DNA of 64,000 bases from positions 671 through 64,670 of the forward strand of contig JAZQTM010000104.1 of assembly GCA_045630765.1 (NCBI GenBank), given 5' to 3'. A model generated the notes under the pieces. It was not told the origin of the DNA. It ran no database searches and worked only from the letters and a program-made list of their open reading frames with translations. The translations under genes and the position numbers were made by a program. The stretch comes from Acutalibacteraceae bacterium. GTDB lineage: Bacteria; Bacillota; Clostridia; Oscillospirales; Acutalibacteraceae. Below, one piece after another: positions 11,544 to 61,129 of this stretch; position 1 is the first letter of the stretch; every line of letters starts with the position of its first letter.

Positions 11544-11577
11544 TAATCATTTTCTTAAAGCAAAAGGAGAAAGTCAA

Positions 11578-12543: not shown

Positions 12544-12606
12544 TCCCATTTAATCTGTCTCTAAATTGCGGAGAAAACCGAAATTTAAAATAAAGGAGAA
12601 TATCAA

Positions 12607-13566
12607 ATGGCAAAAGAGAAAGTATTAAACGAGTTCATCTTACATCGTAGCGAGCATAACCCGTTGATCTCGCCGACGGATTTCCCGGGCGGTATCGCTG
12701 ACTCGGTTATGAACTGCGGTCAGGTTATGCACGAGGGAAAGGTCGTATTATTGGTAGCTGTTGTCTATCGTGGCAGATACAATGGCGCTGAAGCCGGCAT
12801 CCACGTGGCAACCAGTGAGGATGGTATTCATTTTGATATCAATCCCGAACCGCTGTGCAAACCCGTAGACTGGGCTCCCGGCTGGAAGGAAATGGACCGT
12901 TGGGTTATCGATCCGCGTCTGACCAAGATCGACGATACCTACTACATTATGCGTCCCGGTCAGTGCCCCGGCGGTCCGGTAGCGCTGCTTGAAAAAACCA
13001 AGGATTTCAAAACCCTTGAGTACATGAGCTGTGTATCGTTGCCCGCCAACCGTGTGCCGTGTCTGTTCCCCGAAAAGATCAACGGTATGTACGTGCGGTT
13101 CGATAGACCGTATGCCGTCAAAAACACCCCGCAGGGTGGTATTTGGTTATCGTATTCTCCTGACCTCATTCACTGGGGTAATCACAAACCGGTGTTGATG
13201 CCGTGGGGAGCATACTTTGGCTTGAAGGTTGGTCCGACGCCTCCGATCAAGACGAAGCATGGATGGCTTGAAATTTTCCACGGCGTATGGCGCAACTGTG
13301 CGAACGATCGCTATTCGCTCAGCGCTATGCTGTTGGATTTGGAGGATCCCTCCAAGATTATCGGTAAGATGGAGAGCTGGATTTTGACTCCGCAGGCGGA
13401 TTACGAGCGTCTTGGCAACGTGAACAACGTTGTGTTTGCTTGCGGCGCAATAGCAGACGAAGAGAAAGACGAGATCCGTGTGTACTACGGTGCTGCTGAC
13501 GAGCACGTTTGCTTGGCAACCGGTTCTCTCAGCGAGCTGATTGATGCTTGTAAGAAAGGTCTGTAA
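12607..13566 (+). CDS. GH130 family glycoside phosphorylase, copy C
   Basis: A paralog of copies A and B with the same DPR, NR and IFHGVW motifs and the loop YAVKNTPQGG. RBS AAAGGAG. Confidence 0.75.
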   Translation: MAKEKVLNEFILHRSEHNPLISPTDFPGGIADSVMNCGQVMHEGKVVLLVAVVYRGRYNGAEAGIHVATSEDGIHFDINPEPLCKPVDWAPGWKEMDRWVIDPRLTKIDDTYYIMRPGQCPGGPVALLEKTKDFKTLEYMSCVSLPANRVPCLFPEKINGMYVRFDRPYAVKNTPQGGIWLSYSPDLIHWGNHKPVLMPWGAYFGLKVGPTPPIKTKHGWLEIFHGVWRNCANDRYSLSAMLLDLEDPSKIIGKMESWILTPQADYERLGNVNNVVFACGAIADEEKDEIRVYYGAADEHVCLATGSLSELIDACKKGL

Positions 13567-13624
13567 TAGCGCTATTCTTAATTAAAGTGCCTGCTATATC
13601 AGGTCAAAAGAAAGGTGATAGAAT

Positions 13625-15016
13625 ATGAAATTAGCCTTATTGGTAGCAAACCGTGGCTTCTTCCCGAGCTCGGTTATTGAATCCGCATACAGCGAAATGC
13701 TGGCAGCGTTTAAAAAAGTCGGTGTAGAAGCACTCTGCATCGATGACGGCGTTACGAAATATAACGCTGTCGAAACTACGCAGGAAGGTATGGCGTATGC
13801 CAAATTCTTGGAAGCCCACCGCGGCGAATACGACGGTTTGGTTATTTGCCTGCCGAACTTCGGTGATGAAAACGGCATCAAGGCCGCTATCGCCGACGTC
13901 AACGTGCCGATTCTGATTCAAGCCTATCCGGATGAGATCGGCAAGATGGACTTTGCTCATCGCCGTGACGCATTCTGCGGTAAGCTGGCACTGGGCAGCG
14001 TACTGGCACAGATGGGTAAGAAATACACGGCATATGCACCTTTCGTCGTGCATCCCGCCAGCGAGGAGTTCCACAAGCAGTTGTCGACCTTTGCGGCAAC
14101 TTGCCGTGTGGTTGCCGGTATGAAGAAAATGCGCGTCGGTTGCATCGGTGCAAGAACGACCGCGTTCAAGAGTGTCCGCTTTGACGAGTTTGCTCTCGAA
14201 AACGTGGGTATCGATGTCGAAACCTACGATCTTTCCACCTTCGTTCAGGCTATGCAGAAACTGGACGATAACGACAGCGCTGTGCTGGAGTGGAAGAAAA
14301 AGTTAGCGGATGTCGTTTGCTTTGCCAACGCTCCGGAAGGCCGCGAGTTGTCAGTCGCGAAACTCGGCGTAGTGGTTTCCCGCTTGATCGAAGAGAATCA
14401 GTTGGATGCGATCGCAATCCGTTGCTGGAGCGAATTGCAAACCACGTTCGGCATTTCGCCCTGCTCCATTATGGGTATCCTCAACCAGAACGGTATTGCT
14501 GCTGTTTGCGAGACTGACGTTGCCAACGCCATCGCGATGAAAGGCTTGTCCTTGGCGGCAGGCAAAGGCGCAGGCTGCTTGGATCTGAACAACAACTACG
14601 GCGACGAGTTGGATAAATGCATCCTGTTCCACTGCGGTCCGCTTCCGATGGATTTGATGCAGGGTCCCGGCGAGGCGCAAAGTCACAAAATGTTGGATAA
14701 ATCCTTTGGTCCGGATTGCAGCTGGGGTCTCAACGTCGGCAAAATGAAGACCGGCGCGGTTACCTATTCCGGTATGCGTACCGAGAACGGCAAACTGCAG
14801 TTCTTCGTTGACGAAGGCTGCATCACCGATGATCCGGTAGAAAAGGAATTCTTCGGTGTTCCGGGCGTTCTGCAAACTGAAAACCTGCAGAACAAGCTGT
14901 ACACCATCGGTATGGCTGGATTCCATCATCACGCAGCGATCGTTTCCGGTAATGTCGCGGATGCGGTAACGGAAGCTTTCACCAAGTACTTGGGCTATCA
15001 GCTGATCGATTGCTAA
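13625..15016 (+). CDS. L-fucose/L-arabinose isomerase family-like protein
   Basis: The 463 aa length and N-terminal MKLALLVANRGFFP pattern recall the sugar aldose-ketose isomerase family. So do the internal CETDVANAI, FHCGP and GFHHHAAIVSG segments. The assignment is from memory only. Confidence 0.5.
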   Translation: MKLALLVANRGFFPSSVIESAYSEMLAAFKKVGVEALCIDDGVTKYNAVETTQEGMAYAKFLEAHRGEYDGLVICLPNFGDENGIKAAIADVNVPILIQAYPDEIGKMDFAHRRDAFCGKLALGSVLAQMGKKYTAYAPFVVHPASEEFHKQLSTFAATCRVVAGMKKMRVGCIGARTTAFKSVRFDEFALENVGIDVETYDLSTFVQAMQKLDDNDSAVLEWKKKLADVVCFANAPEGRELSVAKLGVVVSRLIEENQLDAIAIRCWSELQTTFGISPCSIMGILNQNGIAAVCETDVANAIAMKGLSLAAGKGAGCLDLNNNYGDELDKCILFHCGPLPMDLMQGPGEAQSHKMLDKSFGPDCSWGLNVGKMKTGAVTYSGMRTENGKLQFFVDEGCITDDPVEKEFFGVPGVLQTENLQNKLYTIGMAGFHHHAAIVSGNVADAVTEAFTKYLGYQLIDC

Positions 15017-15077
15017 AAAACAGAAATAACCTGTGGTGTGTCGCACCTTTAAGGTGCGAGAATTACGGGAAAGAGGG

Positions 15078-15106
15078 AAGAGAGAAGCTTGCTTCTCTCT
15101 TTTTTC
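15078..15106 (+). terminator. Rho-independent terminator
   Basis: AGAGAGAAG-CTTG-CTTCTCTCT followed by a T-run, after the isomerase-like gene. Confidence 0.75.
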
Positions 15107-15167
15107 TTGCCCTTTTTTAATAAAAAGCTTAATTTCTTTTAGTTTAGCTGTATTCAGCGTAAAAAAG

Positions 15168-15196
15168 TTGTAAATATAATGTTTTTATGATAAAAT
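15168..15196 (+). promoter_or_regulatory. Sigma-70-like promoter TTGTAA-17-TAAAAT
   Basis: Hexamers read directly, with a 17 nt spacer, about 30 nt upstream of the 15228 start. Confidence 0.4.
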
Positions 15197-15227
15197 GATA
15201 ATAAATATAAATAAAAGGGGAATTATC

Positions 15228-15908
15228 ATGATTAAAAACAGAACCGCACAACTCATTTACCAGACTATCTACGTAACTCTTGGTATTGTTGGCTTTGTTG
15301 CTTGCCTTGGAATCTTTGATAATATCAATGTGATCCGTTGGGATTTCTATGTGCACTTCACGAACATCAGCAATTTTCTTTGCATAGGCGTTATGCTTGC
15401 CGGTCTTATCCAAACCGCAAAGAAAAAGGAAGACAGCTTTGTTTCTGCCGCTCCCATCCTCAAGTTCATTGGTATGCTCGGCATTTTGCTCACCTTCCTT
15501 GTGTTTAACATTATGCTTGCCGGCGCCGAGGGCCGTGATCCTCAGGCAAACTGGAGAATCGGAAGCCTTTGTTTCCACGTGGTTCTTCCCATTATGTACA
15601 TAGCTGACTGGTTCTTGTTCTACGAGCGCAAAAAGTGCAAATGGTATTATCCCATTGCCTCTATCGCATTCCCTTTAATTTATGTGATTTTCCTTCTTAT
15701 TCAGGCGGTTATTTTGAAGTTTGATTCTTCGATTTTGATTCCTACCACTACGACCCCTCTTATCTATCCTTACTTCTTTGTCAATCTTGACACACAGGGC
15801 GTTTCCGGTGTTCTCACCTGGATTGGTATCCTTTCTGCGGCGTTTGTTATCGTTGGGTTTTTGTTCTTTGGTCTTGACAGACTTGGAAAGAAAAAACTTG
15901 ATAAATAA
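15228..15908 (+). CDS. Six-pass integral membrane protein (Pr6Pr/FAR-17a-AIG1-like, tentative)
   Basis: ATG at 15228 follows AAAAGGGG. Six hydrophobic spans carry the motifs HFTNISN, HVVLPIMYIADW and YPYFFVN. Confidence 0.5.
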   Translation: MIKNRTAQLIYQTIYVTLGIVGFVACLGIFDNINVIRWDFYVHFTNISNFLCIGVMLAGLIQTAKKKEDSFVSAAPILKFIGMLGILLTFLVFNIMLAGAEGRDPQANWRIGSLCFHVVLPIMYIADWFLFYERKKCKWYYPIASIAFPLIYVIFLLIQAVILKFDSSILIPTTTTPLIYPYFFVNLDTQGVSGVLTWIGILSAAFVIVGFLFFGLDRLGKKKLDK

Positions 15909-16113: not shown

Positions 16114-16803
16114 ATGGACAAATTAGTCAGAAAAATAGAAATTCCGCTTGCTCGTCGAGCAATAGAAAGAGCGGGACTGTATATAGTGAAGAAAGAGGAT
16201 CTTGATCGTCTTTCTGAAGTTGCGGCAGATGCATACCGTGATTACCCCTTACACAATTGGCTCACTAAGGGTAAATACGATGCCAAAGCATCCAAACTCA
16301 TTATGCAAATCACCCTTAAATCAATGACGGAAGATGCGATAATCTATGCCGATAGTGAAGAAATCAACGGCTTTGCGGTTTGGTTGCCCTTCGGTTTTAC
16401 GGGCAGCAAAACCCTTCCGTTTTTATTAAATGGCGGACTCAGTCTGATCCTTCATTCAGGCCTTGGGATTATCGGAAGACTTTTAACCTATGAAACCTAT
16501 GCGATGAATCTCAAAAAAGAGTTTACCGATAATTACGATTGGTACTTATACAACCTTTCGATCAAACAAGATGCACAGGGGAAAGGTATTGCCAGTAAAC
16601 TGATGCGCCCAATGTTGCAGTTTTGCGATGACGAAAGAATGGTCTCCTATTTGGAAACCAACAAAGATAAAAACGTTGGTTTGTATCAGCATTATGGGTT
16701 TGAACTCAAAAGGGAAGAGATAATTCCCAAAAGCCCTGTTACGCATTATTCGATGGTTCGGTATCCCATAGAACAACCGGAAGGGAGCAAGGACAATGCC
16801 TAA
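16114..16803 (+). CDS. GNAT family N-acetyltransferase
   Basis: Acetyl-CoA binding motif context LSIKQDAQGKGIASKLMRPMLQFCD ... NVGLYQHYGFE. RBS TAAGGAG. Confidence 0.75.
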   Translation: MDKLVRKIEIPLARRAIERAGLYIVKKEDLDRLSEVAADAYRDYPLHNWLTKGKYDAKASKLIMQITLKSMTEDAIIYADSEEINGFAVWLPFGFTGSKTLPFLLNGGLSLILHSGLGIIGRLLTYETYAMNLKKEFTDNYDWYLYNLSIKQDAQGKGIASKLMRPMLQFCDDERMVSYLETNKDKNVGLYQHYGFELKREEIIPKSPVTHYSMVRYPIEQPEGSKDNA

Positions 16804-17755
16804 AAAACAGAAAAAGTTCGCTGATGACGGCTGGGCTATTTGGGTAGATGGCGATGATACCAGTACCGTCTATATTAACGATTGGCTTAACCCTAAAGGT
16901 AAAAGTTATGTTGATTTAGCCGTTCGTATACGCGGTATGAAATCCGGAAAATCATTGCACGTATACGTGCCTTTTGCTGTTTCTTCTGAAGAGATAGAAG
17001 ACGTGTCGCTGCTTTTTAACGATACGAAAATTTTGCAGGCGACCTTTAGTGCTGCTTGTATTGTCGATTACAAGAAAAACGAATACACGTCAGAAATTGC
17101 CTATAACGGAAAAACGGTGGACATTGTACATATCAGCACTTTGGGATATGAAATAATCTCGTTGTCCGACGGCACACTGATTAACATCGATTTTGAAAAG
17201 ATCCAGCCGTTTATAGATAACGACGAAGCGTATTTTATTTGGCGTATGCCGCATAAAACCTTGGATGCCATATTCAAACCCCGCGTAAACGTGGGCAATG
17301 TAATGGACAGACTTCGCGACCTGATCACTACACCGGTTGTGTCTGAAAAATACGGCTATTCCATTCGCATTAACGAATCCCGCCTTTTGCCGGAAGAAAT
17401 CACAAGAATCGGTATGTTCCACCGTCAAAAACTAAAAAAGGCGGTCGTTACGCTTTCCGTTGATGAAAGCTACGAACTTAACGATGCAGGTTGCTACCGT
17501 ATTCGCCGTTTGGAAGAAAATTTGTATTGTGGTTATCTTCCCAACAAATACGATTGCGAAGACATTATTACGTATCAATGGCAACAAAATCGTGAAGACA
17601 ACCTGAAAGGTCATTTTAATTTCTACTATAACATTGCCAAAAACTCGGTAAGCAAAAGCAGTATGTTTTTGTATATGGTCTTGCTTTTAGCCATTGGTAT
17701 TTTCGGTGATCTTTTGGCAGAAATCGTCAAAACATTATTGCGTCAGGTTATGTAA
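16796..17755 (+). CDS. Hypothetical protein with single C-terminal transmembrane helix
   Basis: The start overlaps the GNAT stop by 8 nt. I recognise no motif. The C-terminal hydrophobic anchor is SSMFLYMVLLLAIGIFGDLLAEIV. Confidence 0.5.
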   Translation: MPKKQKKFADDGWAIWVDGDDTSTVYINDWLNPKGKSYVDLAVRIRGMKSGKSLHVYVPFAVSSEEIEDVSLLFNDTKILQATFSAACIVDYKKNEYTSEIAYNGKTVDIVHISTLGYEIISLSDGTLINIDFEKIQPFIDNDEAYFIWRMPHKTLDAIFKPRVNVGNVMDRLRDLITTPVVSEKYGYSIRINESRLLPEEITRIGMFHRQKLKKAVVTLSVDESYELNDAGCYRIRRLEENLYCGYLPNKYDCEDIITYQWQQNREDNLKGHFNFYYNIAKNSVSKSSMFLYMVLLLAIGIFGDLLAEIVKTLLRQVM

Positions 17756-17767
17756 AGGAGAGGTATT

Positions 17768-20605
17768 GTGAGATTAACTATTCCCATACTATTTAACTGT
17801 ATTCTTGTTCTCGCAGTCTACCTCATTGATAAATATACTCCCCTTAAAAAAATGCCGTATATGGCAAAACAAGTCATCATCGGTGTTTTATTTGGTGGCG
17901 TTTCCGCTTTCGCTTCAAGTTATGGCGTAGAGTGGTTGGGAACGACTGTAAACGTACGTGATGCGGCGCCCTTATCAGCAGGTCTTATTTTTGGCGCGCC
18001 TGCCGGCATCATTTCCGGTCTTATCGGTGACCTTTACCGCTGGTTCTCGGTGTATTGCGGCGCAGCCGTATATACACAGCTTGCCTGCAGTGTCGCCACC
18101 ATCCTTGCCGGTTTTATGGCAGCAGGGCTCAGAAAGCTGATGTTTGACAACAAAAAGCCTACGTGGGGTTACGGCATTTGTATTGCCGTTGTTTGTGAAG
18201 TCATTCATATGATCCTCATTTTCCTCACAAATATGGATGACTCCTCATATGCCTTCGAATTTGTCAAAGGCGCCACAATCCCCATGATTCTTGGCAATGC
18301 GGTGGCTGTTGGTGTTGCCATTCTCATTGTATCTGTTTTAAGCCGTGAACGTTTTACTCGCAAGAAAGGCAGTGAACGAATTGCCAATACGTTTCAGCGT
18401 TGGCTCCTTGTTTGCATTGTTGTTGCTTATTTAATAACAAGTGCCTTTACGTTCGTTCTTCAAAACGGAATGGTCAGCATTGAAACACAAGAGGTGTTTA
18501 CTACTGCGATAAATGATGTTGAAACAGATATCAAGGGAAAGTCCAACGCACAACTACTTAGTATTGCAGAGAAAGTCAAAGTTGAATATGAAGCGGATCG
18601 TAACATTTCGTTGCAATCACTTGCTCAAAAATATGACATTAAGGAAATCAATATTGTTGCGCAAAGCGGCCTTATTACCAACTCAACCGAAGCGGATGTC
18701 ATAAACAACTACGATATGAACAGCAAGGCACAATCCAAGGAGTTTGTGGACACACTTAAAACCAAGGATTCCTTTGTTCAAGAGTATACTCCCAGAGGAA
18801 AAGATGAATCCGTTTGGAGAAAATACGCGGCTATCAACTTAGAAGATGGCGGATTTATCCAAGTGGGGTACGATGCCGAGCAGTTCCACAAAATGCTCAA
18901 CGAGTTCGTGGTAGACGTTACTAAAAATCGCCACGTTGGCACAGGTGGCTTCGTTGCCGTTTGTGACGATAAACTCAATATGGTAATCGATAACGATTAC
19001 GCCGGTCTTTCTATTTCTACCATAGGTATTGACCCTCCGACCGAAATGAAAGAGGGCAAAACCGCTACGTCGCTTTACTATGCCGACATTGTTGATGGCA
19101 AAACCACCGACAGTATGGAATACATATATGTGTTTAAGTTCGTTGAGGGCTACTGCATCATTGCGGCACAACCTGCTTCGGAAGCAATGTTTATGCGTGA
19201 TGCTTCTCTTTACACGAGCATTTTTATGCAAGTGCTGATTTTTGCCGCACTTTTCGTATTTATTTACATACTGATCAAAAGAGTCATCATCAACAACTTA
19301 AAGAAGATCAACGATACGCTTGGTAGAATTACAGACGGCGATTTGAACGTCACGGTAGACGTTCGCTCCAACGAAGAATTTTCGTCCCTTTCGGATGATA
19401 TCAACTCAACCGTTACAACGCTTAAACAATATATTGCTGAAGCCGCTGCTCGTATTGATAAGGAACTTGAGTACGCAAAGCAGATTCAGCTTTCGGCGTT
19501 GCCTACCAACTTCCCCGAAGGTGAAGAGTATAGCATTTATGCGGCAATGATCGCCGCGAAAGAGGTCGGTGGCGACTTCTATGATTTCTACAAATTAAAC
19601 GATACCACCGTGGCTTTCCTTGCTGCTGACGTGTCGGGCAAAGGAATTCCGGCGGCAATGTTTATGATGACTGCCAAGACGATTATCAAAGACTTGGCAG
19701 AAAGAGGTTTGGCGGTAAACGATATTTTCACAAAGGCAAACGAAAAGCTTTGTGAGAATAACGAATCGGGTATGTTTGTTACTGCTTGGATGGGTATTTT
19801 GGATTTGACTACCGGTAACGTGCAATTTGCCAATGCGGGACACAATCCGCCGCTGTTAAAACGTGCAGACGGCTCGTTTGAATATCTGAAAACACGAGCG
19901 GGATTTGTTCTGGCAGGTATGGAAGGCGTGTGTTACCGCGTGGGTGAAATCACGCTTGGCAAGGGCGATCGATTGTTCTTGTATACTGACGGTGTACCGG
20001 AGGCTACAAACGTCGAGAATAAGCTTTACGGTGAAGAAAGGCTCTTAACCTTTATGAACCAAAACGCCGACTTAAAAGCCGAATTGCTGTTACCTGCACT
20101 TAAAACGAATATCGATGAATTTGTGGGTGAAGCACCCCAGTTTGACGATATTACGATGCTGATGCTTGATTACAAACCTCAAAAAGGAGGTGAGCACTTG
20201 ACGAATAAAACATTCCCGGCCAAAACGGAAAGTTTGCCCGAGGTTCTTAGCTTCGTAGAAGAAACTCTCGAAAGTTTTGACTGTTCTATGAAAATCCAAA
20301 CGGCAATTTGCGTAGCCATTGAAGAAGTATTCGTCAACGTCGCTCGCTATGCCTATCCGGATACCGAGGGGGATATGTCACTTTACATTGGTTTTGATGA
20401 ACAAACCCGTGACGTGACGTTCCGTGTATCGGATAAGGGCGTTCCTTTTGATCCGCTAAAGAAACCCGATCCGGACATCACTCTTTCGGCAGAGGAGCGT
20501 GAAATCGGCGGCCTTGGCATTTTTATTACCAAGAAAACGATGGATACCGTAACTTACGCCTATGAAAATGGCGAAAACATTTTAACTATGATTAAGAAAA
20601 TCTAA
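17768..20605 (+). CDS. Membrane sensor: 5TM LytS-like module + Cache-like extracytoplasmic domain + HAMP + PP2C (SpoIIE-type) phosphatase + RsbW-type anti-sigma kinase (HATPase) domain
   Basis: GTG start follows AAAGGAGAGG. The N-terminal hydrophobic module contains NVRDAAPLSAGLIFGAPAGIISGLIGDLYRWF. The HAMP region is NNLKKINDTLGRITDGDLNVTVDVRSNEEFSSLSDDIN. PP2C motifs are GGDFYDFYKL, DVSGKGIPAAMFM, LYTDGVPEA and DDITMLML. The C-terminal kinase boxes are EEVFVNVARYAY, DKGVPFDP and GGLGIFI. Confidence 0.8.
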   Translation: MRLTIPILFNCILVLAVYLIDKYTPLKKMPYMAKQVIIGVLFGGVSAFASSYGVEWLGTTVNVRDAAPLSAGLIFGAPAGIISGLIGDLYRWFSVYCGAAVYTQLACSVATILAGFMAAGLRKLMFDNKKPTWGYGICIAVVCEVIHMILIFLTNMDDSSYAFEFVKGATIPMILGNAVAVGVAILIVSVLSRERFTRKKGSERIANTFQRWLLVCIVVAYLITSAFTFVLQNGMVSIETQEVFTTAINDVETDIKGKSNAQLLSIAEKVKVEYEADRNISLQSLAQKYDIKEINIVAQSGLITNSTEADVINNYDMNSKAQSKEFVDTLKTKDSFVQEYTPRGKDESVWRKYAAINLEDGGFIQVGYDAEQFHKMLNEFVVDVTKNRHVGTGGFVAVCDDKLNMVIDNDYAGLSISTIGIDPPTEMKEGKTATSLYYADIVDGKTTDSMEYIYVFKFVEGYCIIAAQPASEAMFMRDASLYTSIFMQVLIFAALFVFIYILIKRVIINNLKKINDTLGRITDGDLNVTVDVRSNEEFSSLSDDINSTVTTLKQYIAEAAARIDKELEYAKQIQLSALPTNFPEGEEYSIYAAMIAAKEVGGDFYDFYKLNDTTVAFLAADVSGKGIPAAMFMMTAKTIIKDLAERGLAVNDIFTKANEKLCENNESGMFVTAWMGILDLTTGNVQFANAGHNPPLLKRADGSFEYLKTRAGFVLAGMEGVCYRVGEITLGKGDRLFLYTDGVPEATNVENKLYGEERLLTFMNQNADLKAELLLPALKTNIDEFVGEAPQFDDITMLMLDYKPQKGGEHLTNKTFPAKTESLPEVLSFVEETLESFDCSMKIQTAICVAIEEVFVNVARYAYPDTEGDMSLYIGFDEQTRDVTFRVSDKGVPFDPLKKPDPDITLSAEEREIGGLGIFITKKTMDTVTYAYENGENILTMIKKI

Positions 20606-20619
20606 AGGGGATTATAACT

Positions 20620-20916
20620 ATGACTATCGAAACCAAAAAGACCGAAACAGCAACCATCATTGAGATCGTCGGCAGACTGGATACCATTACCGCTCCCGCA
20701 CTGGACAAAACCATTAACGAGGATATTGGAGATGCCAAAAATCTCGTCCTTGATCTGAAAGGTCTGGAGTATATCTCCAGCGCCGGTCTTCGCGTACTTC
20801 TCGCGGCGCAGAAGAAAATGCAAAAGATCGGTTCGATGAAAGTGACGGGCGTTTGCGCAGAGGTTATGGAAGTATTCGAGATGACCGGTTTTGCCGATAT
20901 TTTGGTGATTGAATAA
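20620..20916 (+). CDS. STAS domain protein (anti-sigma-factor antagonist, SpoIIAA/RsbV-like)
   Basis: 98 aa with the conserved phospho-serine context LKGLEYISSAGLRVLL. RBS AAAGGGG. Confidence 0.85.
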   Translation: MTIETKKTETATIIEIVGRLDTITAPALDKTINEDIGDAKNLVLDLKGLEYISSAGLRVLLAAQKKMQKIGSMKVTGVCAEVMEVFEMTGFADILVIE

Positions 20917-21482
20917 TGGAACTGGTAAGTGAAGCAATCGCATTTGCCGTGAAAGCGCACGACGGAATGCGTCGTAAAAAAAGTGAATTGCCCTATATTT
21001 TGCATCCAATGGAAGCGGCAACGATCGTCGGTACGATGACGGAGGATCAAAACTTGATTGCAGCCGCCGTTTTGCATGACGTTGTGGAAGATGCAGGGGT
21101 TACGATTGACGAGATTGAAGAAAAATTCGGCGCGCGTGTGCGGGAACTTGTTGAATCGGAAACGGAAAACAAACGAGCGGATTTACCACCAAGTGATACG
21201 TGGCGTATCCGCAAAGAAGAAACCCTTGCCGCCTTGAAAAGCACCGATGATATTGAGGTGCTGATGGTATGGCTTGGCGATAAGCTTGCCAATATGCGTG
21301 CCATCTACCGCGATTTCAAGGTAGAGGGTGTGGCAATGTGGCAGCGATTCAATCAAAAAGACGCAAACGAGCAGGCTTGGTACTATCGCTCCATTGTTGC
21401 TTTAACCGAGCGTCTGTCCGATACGTCGGCTTGGCTCGAATATAAGACTCTGACAGAACTTGTCTTTGGAAAAGGAGAATAA
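20916..21482 (+). CDS. RelA/SpoT-type HD domain protein (small alarmone hydrolase-like)
   Basis: Motifs AVKAHDGMRRKKSELPYILHPMEAA and AAVLHDVVEDAG (HD...ED), with no synthetase domain. The start shares one base with the STAS stop (TAATG). Confidence 0.7.
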   Translation: MELVSEAIAFAVKAHDGMRRKKSELPYILHPMEAATIVGTMTEDQNLIAAAVLHDVVEDAGVTIDEIEEKFGARVRELVESETENKRADLPPSDTWRIRKEETLAALKSTDDIEVLMVWLGDKLANMRAIYRDFKVEGVAMWQRFNQKDANEQAWYYRSIVALTERLSDTSAWLEYKTLTELVFGKGE

Positions 21483-21486
21483 ACCC

Positions 21487-22665
21487 ATGAACGTTACTTA
21501 TCGTGTTGATAAAGACATTTTGTATATTGCGATTGAGGGCAGAGTTGATGCTACCAACGCAGCAGAGGCAGAAGAGAAAATCTTTGCTATTAAGAATGAA
21601 AACCCCGACAAACATACCGTCATTGACGCCGATACACTTGAGTACATATCTTCTGCAGGGCTTAGAGTGATTTTAAGACTTCGCAAAGAAGAACCGAAAC
21701 TCGCCATTATCAACGTATCTTCCGATGTCTATGAAGTGTTTGATATGACCGGCTTTACCGATATGGTGACGGTTGAAAAAGCGTATCAACGAATGAGCGT
21801 TGAGGGCTGTGAGTTTATTGCAAAGGGTGCGAACGGTGCCGTTTATCGTTATGATGACGAAACCATCCTCAAAACCTATTTTGCAAAAGATGCTCTCCCT
21901 GAAATTAAGCAGGAGCGCGAAAACGCAAGAAAGGCGTTCATCCTCGGCATCAATACCGCTATTCCTTACGGTATTGTTCGCGTAGGGGAAGGGTACGGTA
22001 CCGTTACCGAACTTCTCAATGCGGTTAGCGTTACAAAATTAATTCGCAAAAATCCCGACGATATGTCCGAGGCTGCAAAATACTACATCGATATGCTTAA
22101 AAGCATTCACGCCATCGAGGTGGAAGACGGCGAAGTGCCCGATATGAAGGAAACGGCACTTGCTTGGGCAGATTTTGTTGCCAAACATATTCCTGAAGAT
22201 CAGGGCAAAAAACTGCGCGCCTTGATCGAAGCCGTTCCCAAGAGAAACACACTGATGCACGGTGACTATCACACCAATAATATTATGGTGCAAAACGGTG
22301 AGCCGTTGCTGATTGATATGGATACTCTTTGTATGGGACACCCTGTGTTTGAACTCGGCTCAATGTTCAATGCCTTTATCGGCTATTCCGAACTTGACCA
22401 CGAGGTGACCGAGAAATTCTTTGGCTACACTCACGAAGCTGCCGAGAAATTCTGGGATATGTCTCTTAAAATGTATCTCGGCACGGATGACGAAGGCGTG
22501 TGCAGAAGCGTTGCGGAAAAGGCAATGATTATCGGTTATACCCGTATGCTCCGTCGTGCCGTTCGCCGTCCTGAAGAAGCGGACAGCCCTGCTAAGATCG
22601 CAAGATGTAAGGAAATGCTCGCTATTCTTCTTGAAAAGACCGATAGCCTTTGTTTCGATTGCTAA
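21487..22665 (+). CDS. STAS domain fused to APH/protein-kinase-like domain
   Basis: ATG at 21487 follows AAGGAG. The N-terminal STAS domain carries LEYISSAGLRVILRL. The kinase-like fold shows a Gly loop (GANGAVY), a Lys (ILKTY), a catalytic HGDYHTNNIM and IDMDT. Confidence 0.7.
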   Translation: MNVTYRVDKDILYIAIEGRVDATNAAEAEEKIFAIKNENPDKHTVIDADTLEYISSAGLRVILRLRKEEPKLAIINVSSDVYEVFDMTGFTDMVTVEKAYQRMSVEGCEFIAKGANGAVYRYDDETILKTYFAKDALPEIKQERENARKAFILGINTAIPYGIVRVGEGYGTVTELLNAVSVTKLIRKNPDDMSEAAKYYIDMLKSIHAIEVEDGEVPDMKETALAWADFVAKHIPEDQGKKLRALIEAVPKRNTLMHGDYHTNNIMVQNGEPLLIDMDTLCMGHPVFELGSMFNAFIGYSELDHEVTEKFFGYTHEAAEKFWDMSLKMYLGTDDEGVCRSVAEKAMIIGYTRMLRRAVRRPEEADSPAKIARCKEMLAILLEKTDSLCFDC

Positions 22666-22679
22666 AGGAGACGGATGTT

Positions 22680-23576
22680 ATGAAAAGTAAGGGCTTGAAA
22701 GTACCGGTAATCCTTATTGTCGTCAGCATAATTGTTGCGATTTTGGCAAGTTTACTGGTCTCGATGCAAAAAACTCCCGCCATAACAAAACACGATTTTG
22801 ATTTCTCAATCACTTATAAACTCGACGGAGAAACCAAAACGCTAAACGGTGTTTACAGTTGTCGTTTTACAGGTTTTGGAGGGGACGGTGTCGACCCGCT
22901 TTGCCGATATTACGAAGGCACGTATACGGTAGAAGGCGAGAGCGATAATGACCGTTGCTTTACAATTGCCCAAAAAGACGGATACGAACTTTATATCGTG
23001 GCGCTTTTGAACGATTCCTACCTTATGGGTGATGTGAAAAACGATTCGTATGACTCGTACAACGAAAGACCTACTCTTGAAGCAGAAGACAACGAAGGCT
23101 ATCAATACGATGAAGCGGATTTGCCCGCTGTTTTTGATGCCGAGATCGTCAGCTTTGAATATCCCGAACCGATTGAAAACACATTCCGTTTTACGGGCTT
23201 TTCGGGGCTTCATGCTACAAGTACGGGTGTGATGACGCTCGTTGGTGTTTTAGCCCTTATTCTTTGTATGATTTTTGTAAGGAAGGGCAGCGACGTTGAA
23301 TATCGTGTGCTCGATAAGTTTGGCATTGCGCTCAATTTCGCGGCGATGTTTTTTGTGCTTCCCATTCTGTATATCACGGCGGTTTTTGTTCAGGCATACC
23401 CGACGGGACCGGATTGGATATATCAAGCGTATCTGTGTATTCCGCAGATGATTCCGTTCTCCATTGCGGCATCGGTATCTTTGCGGCGTAAAGGATTCAG
23501 AAAAAGCGGATTTTGTGTTCAGTTCATAGCACTTGTGATAGAAGCGATACTTATTCTGATAGAATATATCTTATAA
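22680..23576 (+). CDS. Membrane protein of unknown function, paralog 1
   Basis: ATG at 22680 follows AAAGGAG. An N-terminal TM helix precedes an acidic, aromatic-rich external domain (FDFSITYKLDGETKTLNGVYSCRF ... VSFEYPEPIENTFRF) and about four C-terminal TM helices. Confidence 0.55.
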   Translation: MKSKGLKVPVILIVVSIIVAILASLLVSMQKTPAITKHDFDFSITYKLDGETKTLNGVYSCRFTGFGGDGVDPLCRYYEGTYTVEGESDNDRCFTIAQKDGYELYIVALLNDSYLMGDVKNDSYDSYNERPTLEAEDNEGYQYDEADLPAVFDAEIVSFEYPEPIENTFRFTGFSGLHATSTGVMTLVGVLALILCMIFVRKGSDVEYRVLDKFGIALNFAAMFFVLPILYITAVFVQAYPTGPDWIYQAYLCIPQMIPFSIAASVSLRRKGFRKSGFCVQFIALVIEAILILIEYIL

Positions 23577-23597
23577 ACCACGGGAAGGGATTTCATT

Positions 23598-24485
23598 ATG
23601 AAAAACCAAAAATTGTTTTTACCAACCATCATTTTTGTTGCGGCACTTGTGATTACTATGGTTGCTGTACTTATCGCCGGTATCGCGTTAAAACCAAAGA
23701 TTACCGAAAGTGAGTTCCCGTTTTCTATCACGTACGAATTAGATGGCGAAACCGTAACAATCAGTGACGTTTACAAAGTGCGGTATGAACCGGATAACGA
23801 ATATAAAAACCGTGTATACGTCGGTGAAATTTGCAATAAGGAAGAAGACAATACCTACTACACTCTTAAAAGGGATGACACCGGCAGAATTGAGTTGTGG
23901 ACTCATTTTTATGCGGACTATCTGATGGGCGATCCCGAGTACGATTATTTTGATGAATATTCTTTTGAACCGATAATTTATTATTATGATACTCAAGAAA
24001 TCGAGTATCACGATGAAGAAACCTTGTCGAAGCAAGGCGTAAAGCTGATAAGCTTTGAATATCCCGAACCGATTGAGAATTCGTTGGCTTTTTCGCATTT
24101 CGTATTTCCGGGAAGTGAAGTGATATTCCCCTCGCTTTTGATCGCTTTCTTGGCAATGATCGCAACCCTTATTTTTGTCAAAAAAGATAGCGAGTATGTT
24201 CGTAAGCCAATCAACATCATTACACTCGTTTTCAATTTTGTTATCGGATTTACCGTGTTGCCGTTTTTCACGATTTTGGCTCTTATGCTCAGCGCATTGG
24301 GTGACATTGGCGATGTAATGGATTTGGTGTCTTACTTACTTCCTGCGATAACACTTCTTTGCATTACCGCTTCGATTGGCTTGCGCCGCAAATTATATGC
24401 TAAGAGTGCACTGATCGTTCAGTTTGTATCTCCTGCCATCTTTGCGGTGATTATGATTATTAGTGCTTGCCTCGGTTTAATGTGA
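23598..24485 (+). CDS. Membrane protein of unknown function, paralog 2
   Basis: Same architecture as 22680-23576, with shared motifs (FPFSITYELDGETVTISDVYKVRY ... ISFEYPEPIENSLAF). Confidence 0.55.
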   Translation: MKNQKLFLPTIIFVAALVITMVAVLIAGIALKPKITESEFPFSITYELDGETVTISDVYKVRYEPDNEYKNRVYVGEICNKEEDNTYYTLKRDDTGRIELWTHFYADYLMGDPEYDYFDEYSFEPIIYYYDTQEIEYHDEETLSKQGVKLISFEYPEPIENSLAFSHFVFPGSEVIFPSLLIAFLAMIATLIFVKKDSEYVRKPINIITLVFNFVIGFTVLPFFTILALMLSALGDIGDVMDLVSYLLPAITLLCITASIGLRRKLYAKSALIVQFVSPAIFAVIMIISACLGLM

Positions 24486-24499
24486 AAAACACAAAAAAG

Positions 24500-24531
24500 A
24501 AAAGGCATAGCCCGTGTGGGCTATGCCTTTT
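24500..24531. terminator. Bidirectional terminator between convergent operons
   Basis: AAAAGGCATAGCCC-GTGT-GGGCTATGCCTTTT. Confidence 0.85.
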
Positions 24532-24539
24532 CTTTAATT

Positions 24540-26222
24540 TTAAGCTTTCTCAATATACTCGCGGATGAATTGTGCGAGCGCTTGTTCGGTCGCCGTAGCA
24601 GCTTCACGGTTTGCGGCGGAAACGGAAAGATAGATCTTCAGTTTCGGCTCCGTACCGGACGGACGGACGACAACAGAACCGGTATCCTTCAAGAAGAATT
24701 TAAGCACGTTGGATTTGGGTAAACCGTCAATTCCCAGGCTGTAGTCTAACATGTTAACAACGGTTTTACCTGCCATTTCGTCAAATCCGCCACGGAAAGC
24801 ATCCATAATTGCTTGCATCTTGTGGAAACCGGATTCGCCCTCAAATTCAAACGAATACAGCGTATTGTACGTGAATCCGAATTCTTCGTACAGCATTTCG
24901 AGTTTTTGGAGCAAGGAAATGCCTTGTGCCTTATAATACGAGAACATCTCGCAGATCAACAACGACGCATTCACCGCGTCCTTATCGCGCACGTAGTTGC
25001 CGCTCAAATACCCGTAGCTTTCCTCAAATCCCAGAATATATGCGTCTTTACGACCGGCAGCTTCCAGCACCGCGATTTGTTCGCCGATAAATTTGAATCC
25101 CGTTAAAACGTCAATGGTCTTAACGCTATATTTGTCAGCGATCTTTTTCGCCATATCCATCGTGACGATGGTTTTGACGAAAACGGGATCTTTCGGCATT
25201 TTATTATGCTTTTTCCGCTGTGAGCAAATGTAATCAAGGAGCAGAATACCGGTCTCATTACCCGACAGCAATACAAACTCATTGTCAAGGTTTCGTACCG
25301 CGATTCCCACACGGTCACAATCGGGATCCGTCGCAAGCAACAGATCGGCGTTTTCTTTTTTGGCATACTCCATGCCGAGCATCATCGTTTCGCGAATTTC
25401 GGGGTTCGGATACGGGCAGGTGGGGAAGTGACCGTCGGGTAATTCTTGCTCTTTCACCACCGTGATATTGGTGTATCCGCTTTCGGATAAGGCGCGAAGC
25501 ACAGGCTTCAATCCCGAACCGTTGAGCGGGGAATAGACGATGGAAACGGATTTGTCAATATTCTCGCCAAACAAAACGGATTGATTTTTCACTTCTTCGG
25601 TGAAGTGGGTATACACGTCATCCGGAATGTAGGAGATCGTGCCGTCTTGTTTCGCAGCCTCAAAATCGGTCAGTTTCACATCCTCGAAAACGTCCGTTTT
25701 TGAAATCTCGGCATAGATTTCATCCGCGGCGGCAACCGTGATCTGGCAACCGTCACTTCCGTACACCTTATAACCGTTATATTTCGAGGGGTTGTGGGAT
25801 GCCGTAACCATAACACCGGCGGCACACCCTAAATCACGTACTGCAAACGACAAACACGGTGTCGGCATTAACTCTTTATATAAGCACACCTGAATTCCGT
25901 TGGCAGCAAACACGCGGGCGGCAGTGACGGCAAACAGATCCGATTTGATTCTCGAATCGTAGCTGATCGCGATCTTGCGTTCCTTTTCACTGTAGTGCTT
26001 TACCACGTAATTGGCAAGACCTTGCGAAGCCTTGGCAACCGTATACACGTTCATACGGTTGCTTCCTGCGCCGATTACGCCGCGGAGTCCGCCTGTTCCG
26101 AATTCCAGTTCACGGTAGAACGCATCTTGGATCGCGTCTGCGTCATTCTCAATGCGTTTCAACTCTGCAACCAAATCGGGATCGGCAATTGCTTTTTCAC
26201 GCCAAAGTTTATATGCTTCCAT
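24540..26222 (-). CDS. Phosphoglucomutase/phosphomannomutase family phospho-sugar mutase
   Basis: Active-site loop TASHNPSKYNGYKVY and metal loop ATDPDCDRVG. 560 aa. Confidence 0.9.
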   Translation of the reverse strand: MEAYKLWREKAIADPDLVAELKRIENDADAIQDAFYRELEFGTGGLRGVIGAGSNRMNVYTVAKASQGLANYVVKHYSEKERKIAISYDSRIKSDLFAVTAARVFAANGIQVCLYKELMPTPCLSFAVRDLGCAAGVMVTASHNPSKYNGYKVYGSDGCQITVAAADEIYAEISKTDVFEDVKLTDFEAAKQDGTISYIPDDVYTHFTEEVKNQSVLFGENIDKSVSIVYSPLNGSGLKPVLRALSESGYTNITVVKEQELPDGHFPTCPYPNPEIRETMMLGMEYAKKENADLLLATDPDCDRVGIAVRNLDNEFVLLSGNETGILLLDYICSQRKKHNKMPKDPVFVKTIVTMDMAKKIADKYSVKTIDVLTGFKFIGEQIAVLEAAGRKDAYILGFEESYGYLSGNYVRDKDAVNASLLICEMFSYYKAQGISLLQKLEMLYEEFGFTYNTLYSFEFEGESGFHKMQAIMDAFRGGFDEMAGKTVVNMLDYSLGIDGLPKSNVLKFFLKDTGSVVVRPSGTEPKLKIYLSVSAANREAATATEQALAQFIREYIEKA

Positions 26223-26246
26223 AACACACCTCGTTATTTATTGTCA

Positions 26247-27203
26247 TTAAAGAGAACTTACCAGAATGGATGCCGTACCGTTTAATGTAACGGCAAGATT
26301 AGCGGGGATGAAAACACTGTCACCTTTTTTGACGTTGAACGATTCTTCACCAAAGCAAAGGGAAGCGTTTCCGTCGAGTACGACGAGTGACACAAAGGTT
26401 TCCGTTTCAAAGATCGAATACGTCTCTTTAAGTTCCAGCACCTTCGCGGAGAAGAAACGGCAGGAGGCGAGTTCGCGTACGGTGTTCGCTCCTACGTTTG
26501 AGATTTCTCCGATCTGCCCGTACGGCATGGAGGGGATTTCGGTCCGGGTTACGTCCAATGCCTTGTCGATGTGCAGCTCGCGCGGTTTCCCGTCTGCTCC
26601 CAAGCGTCCGTAGTCGGAAATGCGGTACGTAGTGTTGGAGTTCTGCTGTACCTCTGCGATCAAGATTCCTTCGCCGATCGCGTGCAACGTGCCGGCATCG
26701 ATGAAGAACACGTCTCCTTTATGCACGGGAACGGAATTACAAACGTCGGTTAAAGTATTGTCGCTCATTCTTTTCTTAAATTCCTCTTTGGAAATGTTTT
26801 CAGAAAAGCCGTACAACAATTCGGCGCCTTCTTGGCAGTCCACAACGTACCACATCTCGGTTTTACCGAACTCGCCTTCGTTTGCCAACGCGTAGTCATC
26901 ACTGGGATGTACCTGTACGGACAACTTTTGCTTGGCATCGATCAGTTTTATTAAGATGGGGAAATAGGGGAAAGCAGCAGCACGTATACCCAGCGCTTCT
27001 TCTCCCCAGACCGCCAATACATCAGGCAAAGATTTCCCGGCAAACTCCCCGTTTACAACGGTGTTTGAGCCGTCTTTATGGCAAGACAACATCCAACCTT
27101 CGGCAGCAATGTCGGTATCGGATGCTAAACCAAATTCAGTTTTTAAACGTGTACCGCCCCATAAATAATCCTTCACGGGTGGCTTTAATAATAACGGATA
27201 CAT
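26247..27203 (-). CDS. manA: Mannose-6-phosphate isomerase, class I
   Basis: Motifs LSVQVHPSD, KTEMWYVV and LHAIGEG, in a 318 aa type I PMI layout. Confidence 0.85.
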   Translation of the reverse strand: MYPLLLKPPVKDYLWGGTRLKTEFGLASDTDIAAEGWMLSCHKDGSNTVVNGEFAGKSLPDVLAVWGEEALGIRAAAFPYFPILIKLIDAKQKLSVQVHPSDDYALANEGEFGKTEMWYVVDCQEGAELLYGFSENISKEEFKKRMSDNTLTDVCNSVPVHKGDVFFIDAGTLHAIGEGILIAEVQQNSNTTYRISDYGRLGADGKPRELHIDKALDVTRTEIPSMPYGQIGEISNVGANTVRELASCRFFSAKVLELKETYSIFETETFVSLVVLDGNASLCFGEESFNVKKGDSVFIPANLAVTLNGTASILVSSL

Positions 27204-27334
27204 AGCGGAACCCCATTTCGTATTTCTATACTATAATAGTACCCTTTTCAAGGCGCAAAGTCAAGGAAAAGCCTCTGCATTTCACTTCATAATTGGATAT
27301 GGACAAAAAACACAAAAATTGGACTGATTTCGCA

Positions 27335-27363
27335 TTGCAATCGGTTGAGAGAGGTGTTATGCT
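27335..27363 (+). promoter_or_regulatory. Sigma-70-like promoter TTGCAA-17-TATGCT with TG extended -10
   Basis: Read directly, 36 nt upstream of ATG 27399. Confidence 0.45.
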
Positions 27364-27374
27364 ACAAGCATAAC
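27356..27374. promoter_or_regulatory. Perfect 8 bp palindrome GTTATGCT-ACA-AGCATAAC overlapping the predicted -10
   Basis: The left arm covers the TATGCT -10 hexamer (27358-27363) of the promoter in front of the DUF5107-like gene. Confidence 0.45.
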
Positions 27375-27398
27375 AGTAATGTGAAATGAGGGAAAGTT

Positions 27399-60997: not shown

Positions 60998-61129
60998 TTC
61001 GAACTCCTTTTTCTCATAAAGATATCGTGATGAGTATAGTATAAAGTGTTTTGCGGAAAATTTCAAGATTTCGCGTGACAAAAGCATATGAATGGTGTAG
61101 AATAGGCGGTAGGTAAAGGGGATAGAGTT

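Follow-up and report, generated by a model that had tools for sequence, protein, structure and literature searches.

Partner switching is taught as a means of releasing sigma factors, and the direct enzymatic outputs known for it are few and recent. The question considered here is what such a switch may control when no sigma factor is encoded beside it. It is raised by a cluster of eight + strand genes in a stretch of 64,000 nucleotides (the window) from contig JAZQTM010000104.1 of an Acutalibacteraceae bacterium (assembly GCA_045630765.1). An earlier note on the window had read the cluster as an operon in the order GNAT, tail-anchored protein without family, sensor-PP2C-RsbW fusion, STAS, HD, STAS-APH and two membrane paralogues, and this domain order was borne out by Pfam (genes 1 to 8, Table 1). 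In this work, comparison of loci at the sequence level indicates that the conserved system is genes 3 to 6, that is, the membrane sensor with its phosphatase and kinase domains, the free STAS protein, the HD_4 hydrolase and the STAS-APH fusion. We hypothesize that these four genes form a sigma-independent partner-switching-type cassette whose output is an enzyme pair instead of transcription, a reading to which we give roughly an even chance. The narrower statement, with the STAS-APH kinase in place of a sigma factor as the conserved output, is quite probable.

Conservation of genes 3 to 6

The genes that travel together were sought in a genome scan with one genome per GTDB species, from which 80 loci were kept, all at most 55% identical to the STAS-APH protein of the window. 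The scan pattern (G[IVL]PTAI...) misses the window's own clade (GINTAI), so that the 80 loci are all distant and intermediate distances are unsampled; near relatives (P0039, P0016 and P0118) stood in for the window STAS-APH in look-ups. The loci come mostly from uncultured gut and rumen Clostridia and Erysipelotrichia, the taxa being Oscillospiraceae, Acutalibacteraceae, Lachnospiraceae, Anaerovoracaceae/Mogibacterium, Christensenellales-like metagenome-assembled genomes and Erysipelotrichia (Solobacterium, Bulleidia). The eight window proteins and their separate domains were searched against all open reading frames (ORFs) of these loci. In the same-strand run around the STAS-APH gene, HATPase_c_2 was found in 60 of the 80 loci, a free STAS in 52, HD_4 in 38 and PP2C in 37, and at least one of the four stood in the same uninterrupted run in 72; several of the remaining eight loci are truncated contigs. 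Where both flanks were complete (44 loci), the counts were 34 for HATPase_c_2, 33 for STAS, 16 for HD_4 and 18 for PP2C. Of the 38 loci with an HD_4 gene, 34 have it immediately 5' of STAS-APH, usually overlapping or a few nucleotides apart. When the neighbours were clustered all against all, no family spanned more than 8 of the 80 loci, and the recurring ones are lineage synteny. No homologue of genes 1, 2, 7 or 8 was found in any of the 80 loci at E ≤1e-3.

The three near relatives L081, L087 and L088, whose STAS-APH proteins are 91, 94 and 91% identical to that of the window, respectively, have counterparts of genes 2 to 6 of matching length and Pfam content in the same order, and in each of them a 318-319-aa (amino acid) gene without Pfam match stands directly upstream of the gene 3 counterpart. 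GNAT is present in L081 (88% identity) and in L087, and in L088 it is replaced by a 112-aa gene without acetyltransferase match. A 298-aa gene without Pfam match occupies the gene 7 position in L081 and L088, and gene 7 is absent from L087. Gene 8 was seen only in the window; it is absent from L081, where the gene at that place is unrelated, and apparently from L087 and L088. The surroundings include a two-component system with sortase/pilin genes in L081, a two-component system with a pilin gene in L088 and a relaxase/recombinase element downstream in L087. From these comparisons, gene 2 appears to be a clade-specific companion of the sensor, and genes 1, 7 and 8 appear to be variable, lineage-specific neighbours outside the conserved system.

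These data bear on the possibility that all eight genes are one system, with the membrane paralogues (and GNAT or gene 2) as substrates or effectors. The tight spacing and the single terminator are in keeping with it, as is the synteny of the block from the gene at 15195 to gene 7 in a near relative with different flanks, but the distant loci lack genes 1, 2, 7 and 8 and genes 1, 7 and 8 vary among the near relatives, and we regard a system of eight as very unlikely. The earlier note had taken the eight genes together and had named the two membrane paralogues as possible targets of the switch. What recurs across the 80 loci is genes 3 to 6, and the membrane targets find no comparative support, because genes 7 and 8 have no homologue there and vary even among relatives of about 91-94% identity. 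The other half of its proposal, an enzymatic switch output, agrees with the linkage of the STAS-APH kinase and HD_4, with the two STAS domains and with the lack of a linked sigma factor.

The STAS-APH kinase

Gene 6 consists of a STAS domain (aa 4-99) and an APH domain (aa 108-314; Pfam E 1.5e-20), followed by a C-terminal helical region. Across 39 diverse homologues, G114, K129, H258, D260, N265 and D277 of the kinase domain are invariant and G112, G117 and D279 nearly so; the Gly-rich loop, the catalytic Lys, the HxDxxxxN loop and the DxD metal site of APH/choline-kinase-like phosphotransferases are all present. By these residues, the APH-fold domain is predicted to be catalytically intact. 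The AlphaFold2 model, made with the 39-member alignment, is a confident two-domain single body with a predicted local distance difference test (pLDDT) of 95.2 and a predicted template-modelling score (pTM) of 0.86. A Foldseek search of the PDB with gene 6 gave APH(2''), 5-methylthioribose kinase, choline/ethanolamine-kinase-like proteins and macrolide and capreomycin phosphotransferases, with an identity of about 14% and target-normalised template-modelling scores up to 0.59. The modelled fold is that expected of a hydroxyl kinase of the APH/ChoK class, and it names no substrate. Gene 6 resembles the small-molecule kinases of TIGR02172 and Pfam APH in having an APH fold, in its Brenner motif HGDxHxxN and in its IDMD metal site, whereas its score against TIGR02172 (123.2 bits) is below the cut-off of 228.2 and the N-terminal STAS fusion defines a separate, much larger clade.

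The family is large. An exhaustive search of 50% identity representatives gave 671 clusters at E ≤1e-30, and most of the best 150 representatives are full-length proteins of about 390 aa. In the scan that took a single genome for each GTDB species, 598 or more matches were confirmed as loci of the family, and in a word-indexed search the best 120 of at least 8000 candidates were all at least 89% identical to gene 6. In public annotations, these proteins are called "anti-sigma factor antagonist" or "phosphotransferase".

The structural neighbours also suggest another role for the APH-fold domain, either as a protein kinase acting on STAS, which would be a second input, or as an antibiotic or xenobiotic kinase under envelope-stress control together with GNAT. 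APH(2'') and the macrolide and capreomycin phosphotransferases are the top structural neighbours, some APH-fold proteins are protein kinases, with the YihE and CotS-like families matching weakly, and GNAT lies within the same operon. However, the identity to resistance enzymes is only that of the Foldseek matches, the score against the NCBIfam model of APH(3') (APH_3p) is 17.5 bits with a cut-off of 205, and GNAT is not conserved with the module. Moreover, a co-encoded cytoplasmic phosphoesterase would reverse a resistance modification, and a further protein kinase would act on STAS domains that RsbW-like kinases already accompany. A role of this kind is thus considered decidedly unlikely.

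The membrane sensor and the two STAS domains

The gene 3 product begins with a 5TMR-LYT domain, followed by an extracytoplasmic region, a transmembrane segment, a weak, sub-threshold HAMP match, the PP2C (SpoIIE) domain and the RsbW-like ATPase domain, and has eight hydrophobic segments. The PP2C metal-binding motifs GGDFYD, ADVSGKG, YTDGV and QFDD are kept in 44 module-linked homologues, and the N-box E..N, G1 D.G and G2 GGLG motifs of HATPase_c_2 in 62 homologues. The closest solved chains are Rv1364c, which is the best PDB match, RssB, SiaA and SpoIIE. Judged by its motifs, gene 3 is predicted to carry an intact PP2C phosphatase and an RsbW/SpoIIAB-type kinase, the two activities on which partner-switching systems depend.

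Both STAS domains are above the TIGR00377 cut-off of 53 bits, gene 4 with 73 bits (PF01740 E 4e-17) and the STAS domain of gene 6 with 58.6 bits (Pfam STAS E 1e-12). The putative phospho-serines are Ser54 of gene 4 and Ser56 of gene 6, a position which we take to be equivalent to Ser58 of SpoIIAA. The SSAGLR motif is at least 95% conserved across 54 free STAS homologues, and the serine of the fused domain (S56) is invariant in 39 diverse STAS-APH sequences. Among the chains matched by the STAS part of the STAS-APH family profile are SpoIIAA and RsbV, and the aligned 4hyl fits the SSAGLRV motif. Each domain thus has the features of a STAS antagonist with a conserved, predicted phosphorylatable serine. 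The two are 42% identical to each other and have the motif LEYISSAGLRV in common, in keeping with a single kinase/phosphatase pair for the two.

Fusions and exchangeable partners

Across the 80 loci, the RsbW-like domain is found in four arrangements: fused to PP2C, as a separate small gene, at the C-terminus of STAS-APH, and as a small gene directly after STAS-APH. The third of these, the STAS-APH-HATPase_c_2 triple fusion, occurs in 22 loci (517-545 aa) and in the representatives P0134, P0141 and P0271 by Pfam. Four further architectures were found by Pfam among the 50% representatives, namely HATPase_c_2-STAS-APH (P0132), HD_4-STAS-APH (P0205), HD-CE-STAS-APH (P0186) and STAS-APH-PHP (P0140). 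With at least 25 distinct clusters at 90% identity, lengths of 603-615 aa and 49-100% mutual identity, the HD_4-STAS-APH fusions form a clade and are no accident of gene calling. That the STAS-APH kinase and the HD_4 hydrolase, the candidate outputs of the earlier note, are specifically linked partners of the switch is upheld both by co-location in 72 of the 80 loci and by these Rosetta-stone fusions.

HD_4 and the triple fusion hardly ever occur together, L056 being the only locus with both. Genes of PHP phosphoesterases are found in the same run as triple fusions in L029, L039, L057, L058, L069 and L072; they lie directly downstream in five loci, which are without HD_4, and further upstream in L057. 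By this distribution, PHP appears to replace HD_4. What recurs is a kinase tethered to STAS, accompanied by an RsbW-like domain and by a phosphoesterase of a fold that differs from locus to locus.

Absence of a linked sigma factor

As the earlier note had stated, no sigma factor or DNA-binding gene was found by Pfam within the operon, and no sigma factor was found among 20 other window proteins scanned with Pfam, ten of which are of sigma-factor size. A co-conserved sigma factor lying outside the operon was also looked for among 131 same-strand genes from 77 loci, each no more than two places away from a core gene. No sigma-70 family with at least two members was found there, so that a sigma-70 domain is present in at most one of the 131 neighbours. 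The commonest neighbour families were MatE (7), His_Phos_1 (6), SDF (6), HATPase_c_2 (6), Peptidase_U32 (5), 2-Hacid_dh_C (5) and PHP (4). An approximate sigma-factor probe with phmmer, which had a poor positive control, gave one weak match in one locus, 5.8 kb off and on the opposite strand.

These results can be set against a conventional anti-sigma circuit, in which the RsbW-like domain would hold a remotely encoded sigma factor, the free STAS protein would be the antagonist, and STAS-APH and HD_4 would be accessory inputs or decoys. PP2C, HATPase_c_2 and STAS are indeed the canonical trio, several antagonists per anti-sigma factor are known, e.g., for M. smegmatis SigF, and the visible genome is 64 kb. 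The HATPase domain of gene 3 does match the NCBIfam equivalog models of RsbW and SpoIIAB, but weakly and far below the cut-off (31 vs 145 bits). On the other hand, the RsbW-like domain is always either fused (to PP2C, STAS-APH or MatE) or adjacent to STAS-APH, it is never beside a sigma gene in the 80 loci, and the fusions indicate STAS-APH as its physical partner. A remote sigma factor as the real output is thus regarded as improbable.

The HD_4 hydrolase

Gene 5 is matched by PF13328 (E 8e-22), and its best PDB matches are 7QOE (E 3e-25) and 7QOC, the RelH proteins of Leptospira levettii and Corynebacterium glutamicum, for the latter of which the Mn ligands have been described (PMC9293644). 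The equivalents of the RelH Mn ligands, H30, H54, D55 and D122, are at least 95% conserved among 39 HD_4 sequences, as are E58-D59, R20-K21 and N126. With these Mn ligands and the ED pair, gene 5 is a putative small alarmone hydrolase of the single-domain HD_4 type. In the single HD_4 domain, the Mn ligands and the ED motif, it is like RelH of C. glutamicum and L. levettii (PMC9293644) and like Mesh1 and XccSAH (PMC9765508). It differs from small alarmone hydrolases that serve as the antitoxin of a toxic synthetase, as no RelA_SpoT synthetase gene has its place beside gene 5. No alarmone synthetase was found in the operon by Pfam, and a synthetase probe of the 80 loci gave one weak ORF, 4.3 kb off, in a single locus.

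The residues of gene 5 and its closeness to RelH, together with the fusion or adjacency of HD_4 to STAS-APH, would also fit alarmone hydrolysis as the true output. In that case, the switch would control HD_4 as a (p)ppGpp/(p)ppApp hydrolase in the stringent response, and STAS-APH would be a regulatory or scaffold partner. However, 42 of the 80 loci have no HD_4, and in others the unrelated esterases PHP or HD-CE take its place, a pattern more readily explained by a generic counter-phosphatase than by a role confined to alarmones. In addition, the APH domain is more than a scaffold, as its catalytic residues are invariant, and the weak ORF found by the probe leaves HD_4 without a co-conserved synthetase. 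We consider alarmone hydrolysis an unlikely output of the switch.

Proposed mechanism

The scheme proposed here for who phosphorylates whom, for the direction of regulation and for the substrate builds on what was observed: which domains are present, that their catalytic motifs are intact, that the genes are conserved together and in part fused, and that no sigma factor is linked to them. We hypothesize that the 5TMR-LYT/HAMP membrane sensor determines how far its own PP2C phosphatase or its own RsbW-like serine kinase prevails. The RsbW-like domain would write phosphate on the STAS serines, Ser54 of the free STAS and Ser56 of the fused STAS, and PP2C would erase it. The fused STAS would gate the APH-fold kinase through its phosphorylation state or through occupancy by the RsbW-like domain, and the free STAS would compete for the same kinase and phosphatase, by which a threshold would be set. 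The APH-fold domain, as a small-molecule-type kinase, would phosphorylate a hydroxyl substrate, and the translationally coupled HD_4 enzyme would remove the kinase's phosphate or a related ribose-linked (pyro)phosphate. HD_4 is put forward as the counter-enzyme because of its adjacency to STAS-APH and because of the fusions with esterases of three different folds. Such a role would be chemically plausible, since small alarmone hydrolases cleave NADPH 2'-phosphate besides 3'-pyrophosphates (PMC9765508). The wiring in this detail is tentative, and we would put it at somewhat less than an even chance. One step further, the STAS-gated kinase and HD_4, HD-CE or PHP may write and erase a ribose-type hydroxyl phosphate on a nucleotide-like molecule, which would make them the machinery of an undescribed second messenger or phospho-metabolite; this is a speculative idea with a low probability.

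Several findings weigh against the reading of genes 3 to 6 as a switch with an enzyme pair as output. HD_4 is not obligatory, being missing from the 42 loci mentioned above and from nearly all triple-fusion loci. The HD_4-STAS-APH fusions that were examined (L083-L086; P0414 and P0410; the P0205 clade) are orphans without an adjacent PP2C or RsbW-like gene. Whether the serine is lost when a local switch is missing was looked at, and the orphan fusions retain it (EMISSAGLRV), so the STAS domain may work without a dedicated local switch. The neighbour survey rests on simple ORF calls with the core genes fixed. Finally, a sigma factor may be encoded elsewhere in the genome, of which the window covers 64 kb.

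Comparison with known systems

The closest parallel to the cassette, by analogy, would be the HenR (PP2C), All4160 (STAS-glycosyltransferase) and Alr3423 (kinase) system of Anabaena sp. PCC 7120, in which STAS phosphorylation turns the fused enzyme off and PP2C turns it on (bioRxiv 10.64898/2026.04.08.717354). As proposed for the cassette, a PP2C and a serine kinase act there on a STAS domain fused N-terminally to an enzyme, and the output is enzymatic and not a sigma factor. Gene 6 is likewise an N-terminal STAS-enzyme fusion with a linked PP2C and STAS kinase; components of the switch stand beside STAS-APH in most of the 80 loci, and HATPase_c_2 is also found fused to it. The enzymes differ, All4160 being a glycosyltransferase of exopolysaccharide synthesis and gene 6 an APH-fold kinase. 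Furthermore, the Anabaena genes are dispersed, whereas those of the cassette are clustered, often fused, and accompanied by a second, free STAS and a phosphoesterase.

In Pseudomonas aeruginosa SiaABCD (PMC7647112, PMC8457831), the PP2C SiaA, the kinase SiaB and the phosphorylatable switch protein SiaC control the diguanylate cyclase SiaD without a sigma factor, but SiaC binds the enzyme in trans, the output is a GGDEF cyclase, and SiaB is not a HATPase_c_2 domain fused to the phosphatase. SypE/SypA of Vibrio fischeri, HsbR/HsbA of Pseudomonas and Rv1364c of M. tuberculosis (PDB 3KE6) resemble gene 3 in that one polypeptide has both a phosphatase and an RsbW-like kinase acting on STAS (PMC10120452, PMC6482189). 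Their inputs are receiver or PAS domains instead of 5TMR-LYT/HAMP, their outputs are biofilm or sigma-linked, and none has a STAS-APH or HD_4 partner. The Bacillus circuits RsbU/RsbV/RsbW-SigB and SpoIIE/SpoIIAA/SpoIIAB-SigF use the same three domain families, with the phosphoserine motif at the same STAS position; they differ in having a linked sigma factor, which the cassette lacks, and in a kinase that is a free dimeric anti-sigma factor, whereas that of the cassette is fused.

The earlier note had stated that no system of this composition has been described. For the STAS-APH/HD_4 combination this holds in the literature searched, where nothing specific turned up for TIGR02172, for fusions of STAS with APH or for partner switching combined with a small alarmone hydrolase, and where no small alarmone hydrolase under partner-switch control or paired with an APH-fold kinase was found. 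As a general statement it goes too far, since non-sigma switches and one STAS-enzyme fusion are published. The principle is therefore already established by SiaABCD, SypE/SypA, HsbR/HsbA and HenR/All4160, and the STAS-APH/HD_4 cassette itself, widespread in gut Bacillota, is undescribed in the searched literature.

Locus layout and accessory genes

The ORFs of the eight genes are separated by -8, 12, 14, -1, 4, 14 and 21 nt, which matches the earlier note, and all eight products, with identical starts, equal independent gene calls on a public NCBI contig (76,996 bp). A Shine-Dalgarno sequence for each gene had also been claimed; a clear AGGAG/GGGAG-type site is present at seven of the eight starts, but gene 5 has GGTGA only. 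The ATG of gene 5 overlaps the gene 4 stop as TAATG. The single terminator described for the end of the operon was found again as a strong hairpin with slightly wider limits than the 24500-24531 given before. It lies between gene 8 and the phosphomannomutase gene and has an 18-pair stem with 8 GC pairs, a 4-nt loop, an A-run on the 5' side and a T-run on the 3' side. The Rfam hits Thr_leader, ohsC and mir-1270 (24451-24554) are sub-threshold and all fall on this hairpin, and they were rejected as stem artefacts. No riboswitch or leader family of Rfam was above threshold in the region.

Table 1. Genes, domains and other features of the locus and its flanks (positions are those of the window)
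Feature	Position	Strand	Family or method
Mannoside-utilisation locus, upstream part	10602-15016		
First GH130 ORF	10602-11543		
Second GH130 ORF	11404-12543		Pfam
Terminator-like hairpin	15071-15108		
237-aa polytopic membrane protein, possible upstream member of the transcription unit, clade-specific accessory	15195-15908	+	No family
Gene 1, GNAT acetyltransferase, accessory	16114-16803	+	Pfam Acetyltransf_7/1/10
Gene 2, 319-aa tail-anchored protein, probable clade-specific companion of the sensor	16796-17755	+	No family
Gene 3, 945-aa membrane sensor fused to PP2C and RsbW-like ATPase	17768-20605	+	Pfam
5TMR-LYT sensor domain of gene 3, aa 31-189	17858-18334	+	PF07694, E 1.1e-23
PP2C/SpoIIE phosphatase domain of gene 3, aa 612-802	19601-20173	+	PF07228, E 4.5e-49
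HATPase_c_2 (RsbW/SpoIIAB-type serine kinase) domain of gene 3, aa 816-943	20213-20596	+	PF13581, E 8.5e-25
Gene 4, free STAS protein (RsbV/SpoIIAA-like)	20620-20916	+	PF01740, TIGR00377
Putative phospho-serine of gene 4, Ser54	20779-20781		
Gene 5, stand-alone HD_4 hydrolase, small-alarmone-hydrolase (RelH) type	20916-21482	+	PF13328
Gene 6, STAS-APH fusion	21487-22665	+	Pfam STAS and APH
Putative phospho-serine of gene 6, Ser56	21652-21654		
Gene 7, 298-aa membrane protein, accessory	22680-23576	+	No family
Gene 8, accessory, 295-aa membrane protein paralogous to gene 7	23598-24485	+	
Bidirectional intrinsic terminator, common to gene 8 and the convergent phosphomannomutase gene	24496-24535	.	
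Mannoside-utilisation locus, downstream part	24540-29384		
Second HD-domain protein, 223 aa, unrelated	60416-61087	-	PF01966

The transcription unit may begin at the gene of the 237-aa membrane protein rather than at gene 1. This protein has five hydrophobic segments, and the proposal is made because it shares 93% identity and synteny with the gene upstream of GNAT in the near relative L081 and because a strong terminator-like hairpin lies upstream of it. In L087 and L088, the upstream gene is one of 226 aa without Pfam match.

Gene 2 has no Pfam or NCBIfam match and a lone C-terminal hydrophobic helix (aa 285-314); its AlphaFold2 model has a pLDDT of 57 with a shallow alignment. Genes 7 and 8 are paralogues with 30% identity over the full length (E 7e-46), each having a single hydrophobic segment near the N-terminus and three or four towards the C-terminus. 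In gene 7, which has no family match, the N-terminal transmembrane segment is followed by an extracytoplasmic region of about 150 aa and three further hydrophobic segments; for gene 8, no Pfam family was found. Nine proteins were compared with the PADLOC models of anti-phage defence, and none matched.

The flanks of the block are a mannoside-utilisation locus with three tandem GH130 mannoside phosphorylases, a fucose-isomerase-like protein, phosphomannomutase, mannose-6-phosphate isomerase, a DUF5107/TPR protein and AraC-type regulators, and this locus surrounds the block in none of the three near relatives. The first two GH130 ORFs overlap by 140 nt; since residue 92 is the first in the Pfam match of the second, a codon further downstream is probably the real start of that gene. 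The second HD-domain protein of the window, which is unrelated, lies about 36 kb from the operon.

Some neighbours in the distant loci were observed as well. MatE efflux transporters of 577-585 aa lie inside the module loci L003, L012, L018, L025, L027 and L065 (e.g., L018:7002-8738). A direct scan of the L018 protein found a C-terminal HATPase_c_2 (RsbW-like) domain, and the neighbour counts of 7 for MatE and 6 for HATPase_c_2 fit the same for the others; the domain arrangement suggests partner-switch control of the MatE transporter. In L003, L018, L027 and L065, the MatE genes come after Formyl_trans_N and LPG_synthase_C genes. SDF (sodium:dicarboxylate symporter) proteins adjoin the module in L002, L029, L038, L045, L047 and L074 (e.g., L045:5809-7461) and have an N-terminal extension of about 140 aa without family assignment. 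They had been candidates for carrying HATPase_c_2 and were rejected when the direct scan put the C-terminal domain on MatE. In L008, L010, L011, L017, L021-L023 and L042, loci of Mogibacterium/Anaerovoracaceae type and related ones, the free STAS and the triple fusion stand in a conserved run with Peptidase_U32 upstream. An apolipoprotein-like protein and a 2-hydroxyacid dehydrogenase then follow in most of them, and in some a glycerate-kinase-like gene, as judged from sequence; this run is probably lineage synteny. In L083, a small alarmone synthetase gene is located about 5 kb upstream of the HD_4-STAS-APH fusion.

Significance

The problem posed by the locus is narrowed to four genes instead of eight. 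The natural fusions indicate which proteins act together, and the STAS-APH family, near TIGR02172, is experimentally tractable. As its clusters at 50% identity number in the hundreds and its loci 598 or more, the cassette would add a large family of enzyme-output partner switches. It may also point to a way of regulating small alarmone hydrolases, a matter that the literature calls unclear (PMC9293644). If the idea of a second messenger or phospho-metabolite were true, a cassette for it, placed under a membrane sensor by way of a partner switch, would be widespread in gut Bacillota.

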